A stretch of DNA of 64,000 nt, taken from assembly GCA_963662405.2 (NCBI GenBank), contig CAXXKT010000002.1, forward strand, positions 32,001-96,000, read 5' to 3'. The position numbers were made by a program, and so were the translations under genes. Below are positions 267 through 6,408 of the stretch, piece after piece. The stretch comes from Syntrophales bacterium. GTDB lineage: Bacteria > Desulfobacterota > Syntrophia > Syntrophales > UBA2210. The notes beneath the pieces were generated by a model. The model made no database searches. It saw only the letters and a list, made by a program, of their open reading frames with translations, and was not told where the DNA came from. Numbering within the stretch: the first letter of the stretch is position 1; the number at the start of each line of letters is the position of its first letter.

Positions 267-613
267 GGTAGGGCGACATTCAGGCTCAAGGAAAAGGGTA
301 GAAACTATGTAAATGTTCATTTTGATGGTTCATGTCCACTTATTTGTCGGAATAATTTGGTAGCATAAGTTGTAATCACAATATGAAAGCAAAACATTAA
401 ATTATCTTGACAATACACTGCCATAGAGTTAACAACTAGTTGTTTTAAATCTTGATGTAAATTTTCTTAAAGTACCCAGCTGTAACAATCAGTTGCCCTG
501 AATCAGTACGCTATGCGCGCAGCATCTCATGAATCAGTGAATTGATTTGACCCATTCAGGATAAATCATCCGCAGAGTGTTATGTCTATTAACGAAAGAT
601 ATATCTATAAGGT

Positions 614-967
614 GTGAATTTTATGAAAAGAACGATCTCAGTCTTTATCGCATCTCCAAGTGATCTCGCCAATGAGCGTCGTTATTTCAAGGAAGCAATT
701 AAACAGTTAAACGTAGGCTTTGGCGATGGTGCAAATGTCGAATTTGTACCTTTGGGATGGGAGGATACCCTGGCATCAACAGGAAGACGGAACCAGGATG
801 TGATCAATAAAGAAGTAGATGAGTGTGATGTGTTTATTTTGGTAATGTATAGACGGTGGGGCCAAAACGCGCTCGATGCAGAACCATATACGTCATACAC
901 AGAAGAGGAATTTTACAGAGCCCTTGAACGGTGGAAAAAAGAAGAGTCTCCTGAGATATTTGTTTTT
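614..967 (+). pseudogene. 5' part of a DUF4062 (TIR/nucleoside-deoxyribosyltransferase-like)-TPR gene interrupted by an IS1595 element
   Basis: VFIASPSDL...ER, GWE, DECDVFILVMYRRWG, YTEEEF..A motifs typical of DUF4062; the frame continues at 4033 once the element is removed. Confidence 0.85.
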
Positions 968-980
968 GGCGATTATATAC

Positions 981-1009
981 TTGACAAACCCATTTGGGGG
1001 TGCTATTCT
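981..1009 (+). promoter_or_regulatory. sigma70 promoter of the transposase, overlapping the left TIR
   Basis: TTGACA-17 bp-TATTCT with extended TG; GGAGG RBS before ATG 1031. Confidence 0.7.
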
Positions 1010-1030
1010 ACTTTCAAATGGAGGCAAACC

Positions 1031-1960
1031 ATGAAAACTATAGGATTTGATGCCCCGTATTTCACGGACGATAAAAAGGCTAGGCTATATCTTGAAAAAG
1101 TAAGATGGCCTAATGGTCCAATTTGTCCCCACTGTGGGAGTAATGAAAAGCATTATTCTCTCAAGAGCAAAGAAGATTCTAAGAAACCAGTCCGGGAAGG
1201 TGTATGGAAGTGCAAAAAATGTAGGAAGCAATTCAGTGTTACCGTGGGAACGGTCTTTGAGAAAAGCCACATACCACTTAACAAATGGCTATTTGCAACG
1301 TTTCTTATTTGCTCTTCCAAGAAAGGTGCGAGCGCACATCAACTGCATCGTATGATAGGGGTTACCTATAAAACAGCGTGGTTTATGTTTCACCGTATTA
1401 GATACGCAATGGATCAAAAGCCAAAAGGGAAAATGACTGGTACGGTTGAAGCTGATGAGACCTATGTTGGCGGGAAGGGGCATGGCAAGCGTGGGCGTGG
1501 TGCCGAAAAAAAGACTCCGGTCTTTTCCTTGGTAGAACGTAATGGTTCCGTAAGGTCCATGCCAGTAGAGCGCGTTACAAGTGTAAACCTAAAGGCCATT
1601 ATTAGGGAACATGTTGAAAAAACTGCAACTATAATGACCGATGACTTTCTTTCCTATCGTGGCTTGGGACGTGAATTCTCGTTGCATCACGTCATTAACC
1701 ATGGTAATAAAGAATACGTCCGTGGGAATGTACACACCAACACGATTGAGGGGTATTTTAGTATCCTTAAACGCGGGATAGTTGGGGTTTATCAGCATGT
1801 TGGTAAACAGCATCTTCACAGATACCTTTCTGAATTTGATTTCCGGTACAACGAACGTAAAGTTGATGATGCACAACGGAGTGTATTGGCTCTGTGTGGC
1901 ATTGAAGGGAAAAGACTTATGTACAGGGACTCATCGGCAGAAAGAAGGATTGCAATGTGA
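1031..1960 (+). CDS. IS1595-family (ISXO2-like) DDE transposase
   Basis: Zn ribbon WPNGPICPHCG...WKCKKCRKQFS, HTH, VEADETY, IMTDDF, HTNTIEGYF, YLSEFDFRYNER; the ORF track fuses it to the upstream DUF4062 fragment. Confidence 0.93.
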   Translation: MKTIGFDAPYFTDDKKARLYLEKVRWPNGPICPHCGSNEKHYSLKSKEDSKKPVREGVWKCKKCRKQFSVTVGTVFEKSHIPLNKWLFATFLICSSKKGASAHQLHRMIGVTYKTAWFMFHRIRYAMDQKPKGKMTGTVEADETYVGGKGHGKRGRGAEKKTPVFSLVERNGSVRSMPVERVTSVNLKAIIREHVEKTATIMTDDFLSYRGLGREFSLHHVINHGNKEYVRGNVHTNTIEGYFSILKRGIVGVYQHVGKQHLHRYLSEFDFRYNERKVDDAQRSVLALCGIEGKRLMYRDSSAERRIAM

Positions 1961-2769
1961 GGTCTTTTGATATGACTGAAATAAAAATACGGGTTTTGTT
2001 AAACAAGGGGAAAATCGGTGTTCCCCTAGATAAACTTGGAAACATTTCTAGTGAAACGATGAAATTCTTGCGTTTAATGACTCGTGATGTGGGAATTTCT
2101 TCCTTTGACAAAGGCAAATGGATAGCGAAAAATTTTGAAAATGGTTCTCTTGCTTATGATAGCGTTTATGAGGGTGTCTATGAGCAGGAACATGTAGAAA
2201 AGTTTAATGCTGGGATTGTATATACAACTTCTCGTTTGCAAGAGGATATACCACGCTGCGATTTTGTGAGTTCTGAAACCATGTTGCAATATACAAAAAT
2301 CGGGAATCATATTGATGCAGGAGAAGTAATTGAGTTTGGACTGTACAAAAACGGAACGAGAGTTCCCGGTGAATGGAAAGAGCTAACAAAAGAAAAGGCG
2401 GAACAAATATCCAAGGTTGTTAAAACTTATGTAGAATATATGGGCTCAATATATGGCTCCATTCACGCTTTTAACAAGGGTGCTAAACCACAATTTATAA
2501 GTGTAAGGGATGCCATAACCGGTGATTTGATTCATTGCGAATTTGGGTTAGAGCACTATCAAGATATAATACGAGCCCTTAAAGGACCAAATTCAACTGT
2601 ATATATTTCTGGTCGGATTAAAGAAAACCTTGTCACCAAAAAGATTGACTCCATTTCTTTAACAAGAATTAAGGTTGCTCCTGTATTATCTGATGAAGAA
2701 TATCACATGTTTTTTGGATGTGCTCCCGATATTGAATCAATAAAGGATGATGATATCTATGGAGACTGA
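1957..2769 (+). CDS. Hypothetical protein, IS passenger, likely partner of the PIN nuclease
   Basis: 270-aa ORF, GTGA overlap with the transposase stop (alternative ATG 1972), overlaps the PIN gene. Confidence 0.75.
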   Translation: MRSFDMTEIKIRVLLNKGKIGVPLDKLGNISSETMKFLRLMTRDVGISSFDKGKWIAKNFENGSLAYDSVYEGVYEQEHVEKFNAGIVYTTSRLQEDIPRCDFVSSETMLQYTKIGNHIDAGEVIEFGLYKNGTRVPGEWKELTKEKAEQISKVVKTYVEYMGSIYGSIHAFNKGAKPQFISVRDAITGDLIHCEFGLEHYQDIIRALKGPNSTVYISGRIKENLVTKKIDSISLTRIKVAPVLSDEEYHMFFGCAPDIESIKDDDIYGD

Positions 2770-3316
2770 AAACCGGGTATACATGGATTCGTGTTGTTTT
2801 ATTGATATGGCGAAGATGGCAAAAATTACTCATCTCAATAAAAACACACACGATCCAACCGGAAGAACTGAGGATGTATGGTACTTGAGGCGTCTGTGTG
2901 ATGCTGCTAGGGCTGGAGATATCGAGATTATAAGCTCAACGTTGGCAATAGCCGAATGTCTTCATGATGGCAATCGAGACAAAATAGATGATACAGCAAA
3001 GGATTTATTTGAAAAATACCTAACTTCAGGAAGTGTTGTTTTACCTATTGAAGCTGGGTATGATGTGTGTGTTCAAGCGAGAGATTTATTTTGGAGGCAC
3101 GGGATTCTTTTGTCGGGTGCAGATCAGGTGCATCTCGCATCAGCAATTGAAACGAATTGCAGGGAGCTCATCACCACTGACGAGAAAATACAGACTAGGC
3201 AGAAATTTCATGATGCTATTGCGCCAATAGAGAAAATACTTGGAATCACAGTTATTCGCGCTTCGGCTACCACGATATTGCCGGGGAAATATAGACAAGT
3301 ACAAGCAGGCATATGA
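2747..3316 (+). CDS. PIN-domain (VapC-like) ribonuclease
   Basis: RVYMDSCCFI, SSTLAIAECL, GADQVHLASA, LITTDEK: the acidic D/E/D/D PIN signature. Confidence 0.8.
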   Translation: MMISMETENRVYMDSCCFIDMAKMAKITHLNKNTHDPTGRTEDVWYLRRLCDAARAGDIEIISSTLAIAECLHDGNRDKIDDTAKDLFEKYLTSGSVVLPIEAGYDVCVQARDLFWRHGILLSGADQVHLASAIETNCRELITTDEKIQTRQKFHDAIAPIEKILGITVIRASATTILPGKYRQVQAGI

Positions 3317-3486
3317 ATAAAAGCAAAAAGAATAAAGAAAATAAACCGCTAGAAATTGGTTCGCCAGTAATTGAACGCGATGAATTTGATGCGTTAATCA
3401 AGAAGGTTCTTTCTGTTCCCCCACCCAAGAAATCAGAAAAGAAAAGTAAAAAACAACGTCAAAAGGAGAATAAACATGAAGAATGA
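3313..3486 (+). CDS. Small basic hypothetical protein (57 aa), not in the ORF track
   Basis: ATGA overlap with the PIN stop; MNKSKKNKENKPLEIGSPVIERDEFDALIKKVLSVPPPKKSEKKSKKQRQKENKHEE. Confidence 0.6.
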   Translation: MNKSKKNKENKPLEIGSPVIERDEFDALIKKVLSVPPPKKSEKKSKKQRQKENKHEE

Positions 3487-3721
3487 AAAACAGACTTCAG
3501 AAGAAGTTGCAAAACTTGCAGCGCAAACACTCCAAGACGATAATTCTTCCGCTACCGCTAAAAAGTTAGCTGCTTCTGTACTGTCACAATCGGGTACTGG
3601 AAAACAAACAGGCGCAGAGATAGAAGACCTTGCATCAAAGGTATTACAGAGCGATAAATATAGTGACGACACAAAGTCACTTGCTGGATCAGCACTTTCA
3701 CAATCCAACAAAGATAGGTAG
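3476..3721 (+). CDS. Small hypothetical protein made of two ~38-aa tandem repeats
   Basis: KQTSEEVAKLAAQTLQ..AKKLAASVLSQ / KQTGAEIEDLASKVLQ..TKSLAGSALSQ; AAGGAG RBS. Confidence 0.8.
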   Translation: MKNEKQTSEEVAKLAAQTLQDDNSSATAKKLAASVLSQSGTGKQTGAEIEDLASKVLQSDKYSDDTKSLAGSALSQSNKDR

Positions 3722-3724
3722 CGA

Positions 3725-3991
3725 CTATCCTTTCTCTATAAGATCTGTAATTTTCTTTACGCTACAAGTTGGTATATGAATAATACCTGATGCTTGGATA
3801 TTGGTTTCTGATGATATATCACCCATGTTCGGAGCAATGGCCTTTACATCTTTACCGTCATAAATCATGAATCCAACAGAAACACACGATATTGGATCGC
3901 TCTTATGATAGTCACTGAGGTGTTGCCACTCTGGGTATGGCCTCACACTATCAAACCATTCAATCATTACCATTCTAACTTTTTTCTTCAT
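3725..3991 (-). CDS. Small hypothetical protein (IEWFDS...W...CVSVGF motif), IS passenger
   Basis: 88-aa ORF starting just inside the right TIR, convergent with 3476-3721. Confidence 0.7.
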   Translation of the reverse strand: MKKKVRMVMIEWFDSVRPYPEWQHLSDYHKSDPISCVSVGFMIYDGKDVKAIAPNMGDISSETNIQASGIIHIPTCSVKKITDLIEKG

Positions 3992-4032
3992 ATTTATATT
4001 GGGTTTCTAAAGTATATAATCGCCTTGTTTTT

Positions 4033-6255
4033 TTCAAGCGAGTTGATTCGGCATCAGAAGCAGACCCCGGGCCTCAACTAAAAAAAGTGATTGATTTTAA
4101 AAAACGATTAGAAGATACGAGGCAGATTATTTATCGCTATTTCGACGATAAATCTGGTTTTGTCAAAGAGGTGGATAGCCATCTTCGTGCTTACGTAAAA
4201 GGAGATTTACCTAAAACGCCGTCAAGCAAAGATATAATTGTATTACCCACGGCTGCGATTGAAGAGATTGAAAAAGCTAAAACCTATGCTGAACAGAAAG
4301 CTTTAGAGGCAGAACAAGCTCATGATAATGCAGAAAAAACGCGTATTAAATTAGAGAAAATGCAATTACAAACTGCAAAGGATGCGGCGGAATTATCAAA
4401 AGAGGGGAAAATAGAATATGCACGGGAGAAATTTTCAGAGCTTTTAATAGAGTCAGTTGATTTGAGGATTTTATCTCTTGCATATGAGTTCTTCAATTGT
4501 ACAGGTGATTTGGATTCAGCATTTGAAGCTTCGAGAAAGTGGTTAAGCATAAGTGGTCCTGATCAGAAATCCGCTGCTACAGCAAGTGCCTATGGCAATC
4601 TCGGAGTTCTGTATAAGACGCGAGGCGATTTTGAGCGCGCAGAAGAAATGTACCAAAAGTCATTGGTTATCGATGAGGCACTTGATCGTAAAGAAGGCGT
4701 GGCAATCACCTATGGCAACCTCGGTGTCCTGTATCAGATACGAGGTGACCTTGAGCGCGCAGAAGAAATGTACCAAAAGTCATTGACTATCAATGAGGAG
4801 ATTGGTCGTAAAGAGGGTATGGCAAATGCCTATGGGAACCTTGGAGTTCTGTATAAGATGCGAGGCGATATTCAGAAGTCCGAAGAAATGTATCATAAGT
4901 CATTGGCTATCGATGAGAAGATTGGTCGCAAAGAGGGTATGGCAAATGCCTATGGGAATCTCGGGATTTTGTATCAGATACGAGGTGACCTAGAGCACGC
5001 CGAAGAAATGTTTCAAAAGGCATTGACCATCAATGAAACGCTTGGTCGCAAAGAGGGTATGGCAAATAACTATTCTAGCCTCGGAATCCTCTATATAACG
5101 CGAGGTGACATCGAGAGATCCGAAGAAATGCACCAAAAGGCATTGGCCATAGATGACGCGCTCGGTAGCAAAGCCGGTATGGCAAATGAATATGGCAACC
5201 TCGGAATCTTGTATATGAAACGAGGCGATCTTGCGCGAGCCGAAGAAATGCACCAAAGAGCATTGGCCATCAATGAGGCTCTTGGTCGCAAAGAAGGTAT
5301 GGCAAATGCCTATGGCAACCTCGGAATCCTGTATAAGACGCGAGGCGACCTTGCGCGAGCCGAAGAAATGTTTCAAAAGGCATTGACCATCAATGAAACG
5401 CTTGGTCGCAAAGAAGGTATGGCAAATGACTATTCAAACCTCGGGATCCTGTATAAGACGCGAGGGAACCTAGAGCACGCCGAAGAAATGTACCAAAAGG
5501 CATTGACCATATCTGAGGCACTTGGCAGCAAAGAGGGTATGGCAATTGACTATAGCAACCTCGGGATCCTGTATAAGACGCGAGGCGACCTAGACCGCGC
5601 AGAAGAAATGTACCAAAAAGCATTGGCCATCGATGAAGCGCTTGGTCGTAAAGAGGGCATGGCAAATGAATATGGCAATCTCGGGATACTGTATATGGAT
5701 CGGGGCGACTTAGAACGCGCCGAAGAAATGTACCAAAAGTCATTGGCTATCAATGAGGAGATTGGTCGCAAGGAGGGTATAGCAAATGCCTATGGAAACC
5801 TCGGAATTCTGTATCAGAGGCGAGGTGATCTAGAGCACGCCGAAGAAGTGTTCCAAAAGTCATTGGCTATCAATGAGGAGATTGGTCGCAAGGAGGGTAT
5901 AGCAAATGCCTATGGGAACCTCGGGATACTGTATCAGATGCGAGGGAACCTAGAGCACGCCGAAGAAATGCACCAAAAGTCATTGGCTATCAATGAGGAG
6001 ATTGGTCGCAAAGAGGGTATGGCAATTGGCTATAGCAACCTCGGGATCCTGTATAAGATGCGAGGGAACCTAGAGCACGCCGAAGAAATGTTCCAAAAGT
6101 CATTGACTATCAATGAGGAGATTGGTCACAAAGAGGGCATGGCAATTGGCTATAGTAACCTCGGGATCCTGTATAAGACACTAGGCGATCTTGAGCGCGC
6201 TGAAGAAATGCACCAAAGGTCATCACATCTTTTTACTGAATTGAAAAAATCATAG
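4033..6255 (+). pseudogene. 3' part of the DUF4062-TPR gene (14 x 40-aa TPR-like repeats); could be translated separately from GTG 4087
   Basis: In frame with 614-967 after removing the IS and one TSD (…PEIFVF|FKRVDSASEADPGPQLKKVIDF…); repeats AYGNLGILY..RGDLE.AEEM.QKAL.I.E.LGRKEGM. Confidence 0.88.
4561..6240 (+). repeat. 14 tandem 120-bp coding repeats with high internal nucleotide identity
   Basis: Every second 60-nt line repeats (cttggtcgcaaagagggtatggcaaat...tatggcaacctcggaatcctgtat / cgaggcgacct...gaagaaatg...caaaag). Confidence 0.95.
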
Positions 6256-6326: not shown

Positions 6327-6408
6327 GTGGTGCAAAAGTGGTGCAACCACCTTGTAAGTAGTTGATATTATTGGCTGTCGTCAGGTTCAAATCCTGCCGC
6401 CCCGACCA
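6327..6408 (+). mobile_element. Island attachment site: 3' fragment of tRNA-Pro plus arm-like repeats and an IHF-like site
   Basis: CAGGTTCAAATCCTGCCGCCCCGACCA (6382-6408; T-arm, acceptor 3' strand, CCA) without a 5' half; GTGGTGCAA twice (6327-6346); minus-strand TATCAActacTTA matches WATCAANNNNTTR; base composition shifts after this point. Confidence 0.8.

Follow-up and report, generated by a model that had tools for sequence, protein, structure and literature searches.

The DNA analysed here is a stretch of 64,000 nucleotides from a Syntrophales bacterium (assembly GCA_963662405.2, contig CAXXKT010000002.1, positions 32,001 to 96,000), called the window throughout, and its subject is a gene near the left end of the window that encodes a DUF4062 domain followed by tetratricopeptide repeats (TPRs) and is cut in two by an insertion sequence (IS). 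Left of the IS, 614–967 holds 118 stop-free codons with the final residues PEIFVF; right of it, 4033–6255 holds 740 stop-free codons and a stop, with the first residues FKRVDSA. Both lengths are divisible by 3, which gives a single 858-codon frame from GTG 614, as proposed for the removal of 968–4032 in a preliminary description made from the letters of the DNA. The halves were searched separately, and both match in all 119 listed homologues with a gap of 0 in 119/119, so that full-length proteins of the same architecture exist; this set consists of 120 proteins listed of 570 found, from which the window’s own fusion product (P0003) was set aside. The start of the split gene is likely ATG 623, three codons downstream of GTG 614, because homologue N-termini read MKRxI and the recorded P0003, a 445-aa protein with DUF4062 and transposase domains, implies this codon. 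The intact protein would then have 855 aa, and the 5' half of the gene (623–967, forward strand) would encode residues 1–115. P0003 is also the DUF4062-transposase miscall that had been foreseen. The insert itself is shorter than described: the IS proper spans 3,057 bp (968–4024, forward strand) with inverted ends at 968–992 and 4000–4024 (25 nt, 92% complementary), and 4025–4032 is the right copy of an 8-bp target whose identical left copy lies at 960–967. Its transposase (309 aa, 1031–1960, forward strand) matches PF12762 (138.2 bits), PF12760 (61.3 bits), and NF033547 (223.6 bits, cut-off 75) and reads in frame with the 5' half, producing an apparent fusion open reading frame (ORF) at 614–1960. 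An ISXO2-like DDE transposase with an N-terminal zinc ribbon, together with the inverted ends and the target duplication, places the element in the IS1595 family, in which 8 bp is the usual duplication length. The element occurs once in the 3.8-Mb genome.

The reconstructed protein consists of a DUF4062 head, a helical stalk, and fourteen 40-residue TPRs. The 5' half matches PF13271 (DUF4062) with 50.4 bits against a cut-off of 24.7. The remainder of the head (4033–4200, forward strand, residues 116 to ~171) holds the end of strand 4, two helices, strand 5, and the last helix, according to secondary structure taken from homologue models and transferred to the window by gap-free alignment. A predicted helical stalk (residues ~188–238) and irregular helical pairs follow at 4249–4575 (forward strand), placed there from the AlphaFold2 model of the intact homologue P0021, and the TPR array occupies 4576–6255 (forward strand), with 13 full repeats and a last one of 39 residues, in accordance with the count of 14 given earlier. 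The P0021 model (109-row alignment, mean pLDDT 90.6) shows an alpha/beta head at 1–171, two long helices at 188–238, irregular helical pairs, and a regular TPR superhelix. The best fold matches of the array model are LGN/Pins-peptide complexes, and an LGN-like, peptide-binding superhelix is predicted for the array. For the head alone (model of homologue L007, pLDDT 86.6), TIR and NDT chains occupy the top ranks (Z 10–11.7), including MAL TIR (Z 11.7, rmsd 3.4, 137 aligned), MilB (Z 11.7, rmsd 3.2, 140 aligned), and SARM1 TIR (Z 11.5, rmsd 3.4, 127 aligned). Foldseek agreed weakly with this fold, and the head gave 0 matches at E ≤1 against the sequences of solved structures. The TIR/NDT-like fold ascribed to DUF4062 in the preliminary description is thus found in the model, as a five-stranded alpha/beta fold. 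Since the IS interrupts strand 4 of the head behind residue 115, neither piece is expected to fold into the whole enzyme. The homodimer prediction for residues 1–300 of the family alignment scored 0.05 against a mark of 0.42, too low to speak for or against a dimer.

The absence of a nucleoside triphosphatase (NTPase) P-loop also holds. The Walker A motif is in neither half; the pattern occurs in 2/119 listed homologues, both times within a repeat, and a P-loop behind the head was found in 0/150 of the best profile hits, the linker being all-helical in the model. These 150 hits comprise 67 proteins with the 40-residue repeat, 35 short ones, and 48 others, and proteins of ~800 aa with DUF4062 and HEAT matches are among them (a family of at least 648). 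Among 25 of the 28 family matches listed for the window protein, HEAT families are absent and only TPR families are present.

The enzymatic reading of the head comes from recently described systems, for which the statements given here are those of the available parts of the sources. In one preprint, DUF4062 was renamed NIR, and PsAvs2 (NIR-STAND-TPR), Vulcan (NIR-HEAT), and Vesta were shown to deplete NAD+, with a conserved Glu required in all three (Glu98 in Vulcan) (10.64898/2026.09.04.749371). In Swarozyc, DUF4062 is a TIR-like NADase whose NAD+ hydrolysis needs Glu97; the protein is inactive as a stalked dimer until it assembles on the portal of the phage (10.64898/2026.05.01.722283). For Evangelion, a Q/W/E motif of DUF4062 and an “acidic-SYT” motif with a putative catalytic Glu were described (10.64898/2026.06.25.731849). 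All bacterial NIR systems tested in these three 2026 preprints deplete NAD+ upon infection, which agrees with the earlier statement that DUF4062 occurs as an effector in conflict systems, here as a TIR-like NADase in anti-phage systems. The SYTEEE motif is present in the window and in 117/119 listed homologues, and Glu94–96 is invariant in 109/109 aligned homologues. Five aligned NIR-HEAT heads, 37–43% identical to the window head, have the Glu triplet in common, and its third Glu is residue 98 in three of them. Glu96 (codon 908–910, forward strand), the third Glu of SYTEEE, is taken as the putative catalytic residue because it aligns with Glu98 of NIR-HEAT proteins, the number of the essential Glu of Vulcan. 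This assignment goes by numbering only; the tested Vulcan protein (WP_050009967.1) is not among the 120 of 648 NIR-HEAT hits listed, nor on the plasmids searched.

The window gene is an IS1595-disrupted copy of a widespread one-gene family, NIR-TPR, made of a NIR head, a stalk, and a variable TPR array, without an NTPase. Intact versions were found in many bacterial phyla, and the head is 70–87% identical across phyla among the listed homologues. Intact homologues from environmental hosts include those of Chlorobaculum limnaeum (WP_069810044.1) and Aeoliella mucimassa (WP_145245202.1), and P0021 is the full-length protein closest to the window gene. A first locus scan with a single-protein query found no relative; with an alignment query, 80 loci were kept of 96 confirmed. 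They span many phyla, 28 of them being Planctomycetota by record title, and some genomes carry 2–3 copies. The distribution is patchy, with a match in 3/41 relatives, one close besides the window. A quick tree was built from 56 loci. Its 13 phyla require 26 changes, where 12 would be the smallest possible number. The window head lies nearest a Chlorobiaceae copy (81% identity) without strong support, and no donor can be named because only 7/54 branches are well supported. No close family member was found on 72,556 plasmids, where the best 8 matches are below 41% identity. A search with the stalk region gave six hits, all six with DUF4062, and the idea of effector swapping on the same stalk was rejected accordingly. 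Membership of the PADLOC system PDC-S60 was rejected as well, the match being confined to the head (first 170 of 906 positions). The same NIR head was also seen with other tails (P0121, P0171, P0134, P0141): two NIR-TIR proteins, one with C-terminal CBS domains, and one with a predicted membrane helix.

The neighbours of the 80 loci were surveyed for up to two genes per side, giving 250 neighbours, of which 78 were passed to PADLOC; the survey had no control set. Toxin-antitoxin genes (L062, L079) and transposases (L046, L049) occur among them, and no partner gene recurs. Several placements were observed besides. One relative (L032:8001–13141) immediately precedes Mu-like portal and protease genes and thus lies within or next to a prophage. 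Another, in Massilia sp. 9I (L024:6406–10561), lies between a full aldose epimerase gene and its partial second copy, an arrangement that recombination through the epimerase gene could have produced. A ychF-like GTPase gene is located within a few kb upstream of four relatives that belong to different lineages (L042, L050, L063, L077), and its region is possibly a shared insertion site.

The sensor half varies more than the head. In the window array no two repeats are identical (69–91% nucleotide identity), and the array is longer than in any relative examined, in which up to 8 full repeats (119 listed homologues, many partial) or up to 10 (40 locus genes) were counted. A capping helix is absent at the window C-terminus; a loose pattern finds a short one in 63/119 homologues, many of the others being partial. 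In 561 repeats from 111/119 homologues, Asn at TPR position 6 is 89% conserved, and positions 2, 3, 9, 12, and 13 of helix A have an entropy of 2.7–3.2 bits; several helix-B and loop positions are equally variable. The concave ligand-binding face of TPRs was described as positions 2, 5, 6, 9, 12, and 13, position 3 not being listed in the available part (PMC1261162). The ratio of nonsynonymous to synonymous differences (pN/pS) was calculated for repeat pairs within a gene with an identity of 80% or more (129 pairs from 23 genes, without the window and with equal weight for each gene). It is 1.87 (bootstrap 1.56–2.29) at position 2, 1.58 (1.14–2.14) at position 3, 1.2 (0.83–1.67) at position 9, and below 1 at positions 12 and 13, compared with 0.30–0.47 outside the groove set (0.30 in the filtered pairs). 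The codon comparison shows the repeat scaffold to be under purifying selection and the groove positions to undergo relaxed or diversifying change; this is not proof of positive selection, because the identity filter lowers pS, the distances are uncorrected, and the positions were first chosen from the window. Allelic variation was seen in five Pectobacterium brasiliense genes, whose first 290 residues are 90–100% identical and which have 6, 7, 7, 7, and 8 repeats; their groove residues differ, and two alleles are separated by exactly one whole repeat.

As suggested in the preliminary description, the split gene occupies an island cargo slot. Two elements are stacked at tRNA-Pro(TGG), and the split gene is the sole cargo of the outer one, which reads integrase, 396-aa protein, 140-aa protein, RHH protein, hairpin, cargo, and att repeat. 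The 396-aa protein, taken as Rep by its position, has no family match, and matches to it occur in 32/339 genomes of the class. The distal attachment repeat (6349–6397, forward strand) matches G000:C2:28564–28611 and the tRNA-Pro(TGG) 3' end (C2:19070–19107). The integrase of the outer element lies outside the window (L002:10687–11888, G000:C2:28687–29888) and has a frameshift near L002:11040, by decay or assembly error. Between core genes and cargo slot, a long imperfect DNA hairpin spans 137–267 (z = -4.2 against 200 shuffles). Similar sequence occupies the same place in 2/19 related elements (83% and 70%; L088:4666–4803, L105:4439–4544); the hairpin belongs to the element rather than to the gene and is possibly a replication or transfer origin. 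The comparison set was the 19 best other integrase-Rep-RHH elements (L087–L105), 16/19 with a tRNA or tmRNA gene in the stretch; they are not independent, because several come from the same genomes. Defence systems fill the slot in 5/19: type II restriction-modification (L094), AbiL (L100, L103), AbiE (L101), and an AbiL/HEC-01-like pair (L097). Other cargos are toxin-antitoxin pairs (L091, L096), membrane-TPR proteins (L087, L098), and a Fur gene (L099). The remaining ones are mostly unknown, and those of L088, L089, L092, L093, L102, L104, and L105 lack a significant match in Pfam and PADLOC and are candidates for defence genes not yet known.

Elements of this kind, with a swappable low-GC cargo slot, were seen at tRNA and tmRNA genes with up to four per genome (G134). 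The slot of the closest related element holds another NTPase-less TPR-array protein (L087:5075–7375, 767 aa, N-terminal membrane helix, 42-residue repeats), whose linker is unrelated to that of the NIR-TPR family (hhalign probability 0.6). The inner element at the same tRNA-Pro (L002:1100–10600, G000:C2:19107–28611), outside the window, is satellite-like, with an integrase, a primase-helicase, and, by inspection, ORFs resembling HNH and small and large terminase.

The IS brings passenger genes of its own. A 270-aa protein (1957–2769, forward strand) has no Pfam, PADLOC, or NCBIfam match. A search of 400 other genomes of the phylum did not find it, and unnamed look-alike clusters occur in the Atlas (score 0.95–0.96). 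A 189-aa PIN-domain protein is encoded in overlap with it (2747–3316, forward strand; PF01850, 34.9 bits, cut-off 23.6), and the two genes (1957–3316) are possibly a toxin-antitoxin or defence module riding on the gene-breaking transposon. Three short ORFs of no known family fill 3313–3991: 57 aa (3313–3486) and 81 aa (3476–3721) on the forward strand and 88 aa (3725–3991) on the reverse strand. An outward promoter-like site in the right IS end (3993–4020), which could drive the TPR half, was discarded as a candidate, 2 sites being found against 2.1 expected by chance. A literature search on IS inactivation of defence genes returned no paper.

The window copy is likely non-functional. Its inactivation had been called very recent; a recent but undated event is plausible. 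The target duplication is perfect, and the halves show no visible decay, because they depart from the family at 3/119 conserved columns while as many departures or more are seen in 57% of 109 intact homologues. On the other side, no empty site was seen, the integrase of the element is also frameshifted, and the insertion carries no date. In short-read contigs of runs X1 and X2, which come from one sample, possibly the source, 300–4660 is covered in one piece without differences. No contig of runs X1–X3 joins 967 to 4033, X3 giving partial cover, X4 contributing no contig, and contigs missing rare variants, so that the empty site suggested as a check did not appear in these contigs. In X2 and X3 a contig diverges from the window at 6254, in the last codon of the gene, perhaps as another strain’s copy.

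We consider, with a probability of roughly 0.65, that the intact NIR-TPR protein would act as an abortive-infection sensor, in which binding of a phage protein in the groove would cluster stalked heads that hydrolyse NAD+. The groove of the TPR superhelix would bind an extended segment of the phage protein, the invariant Asn at position 6 would grip the peptide backbone, and specificity would depend on positions 2, 3, 9, 12, and 13. A multimeric target, once bound, would gather the stalks and heads, taking over the part of the STAND ATPase, and the clustered heads would then destroy NAD+, leading to abortive infection. Vulcan and Swarozyc are the basis from which trigger, oligomer, and activity alike are inferred. 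Within the sensor-effector function proposed earlier, the anti-phage NADase reading is likely by analogy to other DUF4062 proteins, and has to be set against the genomic placement of the family.

Several observations weigh against the proposed sensor. Most named neighbours of the 80 loci are housekeeping genes, and known defence genes stand at 3/80 loci (L003, L030, L044) among the 250 neighbours. For NIR genes in general, the reported share with defence genes nearby is 20.0%, compared with 3.9% by chance (10.64898/2026.09.04.749371). Neither 50,697 phage records nor 5,426 E. coli genomes contain a match to the family. Without the identity filter (507 pairs, 40 genes), pN/pS at positions 2, 3, and 9 is 1.02–1.04. 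All three Glu of the motif are invariant, so conservation alone does not single out Glu96, and the fold does not fix the substrate, because the CMP glycosidase MilB fits the head model no worse than TIR does. Some eukaryotic NIR proteins had no NADase activity under the conditions used (10.64898/2026.09.04.749371), and no test of NIR fused directly to TPRs stands in the available text of the three preprints, whose figures and supplements may show such a clade; the words TPR and tetratricopeptide are absent from the main text of 10.64898/2026.05.01.722283 and 10.64898/2026.06.25.731849. The main alternative is a trigger other than a phage protein, such as a host stress signal or a non-self bacterial or plasmid protein, or, in place of bulk NAD+ loss, a nucleotide signal or another N-glycoside cleavage. 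Relatives that are mostly solitary, the share of Planctomycetota (28/80) with several copies in some genomes, the tie of MilB and other NDT enzymes with TIR, and the occurrence of the head with TIR or CBS domains all point that way. We nevertheless regard this alternative as unlikely, since a nucleotide signal needs a receiver, yet no conserved partner gene was found, all the bacterial NIR systems of the preprints deplete NAD+ on infection, and the slot of the carrying element holds defence systems in related elements.

The state of the window copy invites other explanations. The gene could be a toxin of the addiction type, or otherwise selfish and costly, or else a passenger without benefit to the host, the IS insertion having been simply tolerated or favoured. 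The knocked-out window copy, the frameshifted island integrase, and at least 6 related loci that appear split into two ORFs (assembly error being possible there) fit this idea. The match to a NIR-HEAT gene on an Asticcacaulis plasmid (NZ_AP018829.1:136977–140281) falls into two parts above an annotated IS5 transposase, a parallel knockout that fits it too. But no antitoxin partner occurs among the loci, the scaffold is under purifying selection with the head conserved across phyla, and abortive defence genes are also expected to be lost often; we hold this explanation improbable. That the IS is a reversible switch, its precise excision restoring the gene in part of the population, could be read from the perfect 8-bp duplication, the intact transposase frame, and the undecayed halves; the missing 967–4033 junction in contigs that drop rare variants and the single copy of the element speak against it, and the IS1595 family is not known for precise excision, which makes a switch very improbable. 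Least credible of all is that faulty assembly produced the split or the long array. Arrays of repeats are difficult for assemblers, and the count of 14 exceeds every relative examined, yet short-read contigs bridge both IS junctions, the listed contig pieces over the repeats do not differ from the window, and identity between repeats extends over 63 nt at most.

An extension of the abortive-infection sensor can be considered, which we regard as speculative and rather unlikely: NIR-TPR may be a diversifying bacterial immune receptor without an ATPase switch, in which whole repeats gained, lost, or exchanged inside the gene rewrite the trigger of the NADase, much as repeats are shuffled in fungal NLRs. 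A few groove residues per 40-residue repeat would then read an extended peptide. If so, no example of a diversifying array seen so far would be larger than the window allele with its 14 repeats, the array would amount to a code for peptide recognition that can be read and is coupled to cell arrest, and NIR-TPR, which mostly stands alone in its genomes, would possibly sense invaders other than phages.

There is nothing unusual about the broken copy, a cargo gene of an island interrupted by an IS, and its value is as a pointer to a large family annotated “TPR protein”; since intact genes are common, it is not needed for their study. The NADase activity of NIR effectors was already published in 2026, and the ATPase-less NIR-TPR form is what is added here. 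For the question of how NIR enzymes are switched on without a STAND ATPase, NIR-TPR is the simplest case, with one head, one stalk, and one modular sensor. Because alleles differ mainly in the sensor, a groove-specified trigger and repeat shuffling can be tested directly. More defence genes of unknown kind may be present in the cargo slot of these small integrase-Rep elements that target tRNA genes, a family match being absent for several of the cargos.

Compared with known systems, for which the available parts of the sources apply again, NIR-TPR resembles Vulcan in its presumed working and stands outside Vulcan, Avs, Swarozyc, and Evangelion by its sensor or by the lack of an NTPase. Vulcan is likewise one gene with an N-terminal NIR fused directly to helical repeats and no STAND described (10.64898/2026.09.04.749371), and its NIR-HEAT layout is the nearest other architecture in the NIR-TPR profile search. 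Its sensor consists of HEAT repeats, in contrast to regular 40-residue TPRs of variable number, and the likeness to the tested Enterobacter protein is one of layout and residue numbering. PsAvs2 also has NIR at the N-terminus and a TPR sensor at the C-terminus, with a central STAND NTPase (10.64898/2026.09.04.749371), where the window family has only ~125 helical residues between head and array; oligomerization driven by ATP is thus excluded for NIR-TPR. STAND sensors are also used by STAND-less systems such as Dsr1, DUF4062 not being mentioned in the available part of that source (PMC13581612). Swarozyc, a TIR-like head on a helical stalk without NTPase, offers a model for activation by assembly on a multimeric phage protein, but senses the portal via a small HTH/winged AUX domain instead of a TPR array (10.64898/2026.05.01.722283). 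Evangelion is likewise a single gene with an N-terminal aromatic motif (Phe8 in the window) and the acidic-SYT motif; it has a short C-terminal AUX where the window has ~560 residues of TPRs after the stalk, and it is enriched on plasmids, in contrast to the plasmid result for NIR-TPR (10.64898/2026.06.25.731849). BcTir/Tpr, set alongside by description, is also anti-phage and combines an NAD-cleaving N-terminal domain with TPRs, but as a two-gene operon with a separate TIR protein and an isomer of cyclic ADP-ribose (cADPR) as product (10.1101/2023.05.26.542521), while NIR-TPR has no partner gene. Fungal NLRs (PMC12222747) and Ectocarpus NB-ARC-TPRs (PMC3341825) have similar near-identical repeats with variable positions, which is an analogy only: the LGN/Pins and NLR comparators are eukaryotic, and NLRs carry the NTPase with which NIR-TPR dispenses.

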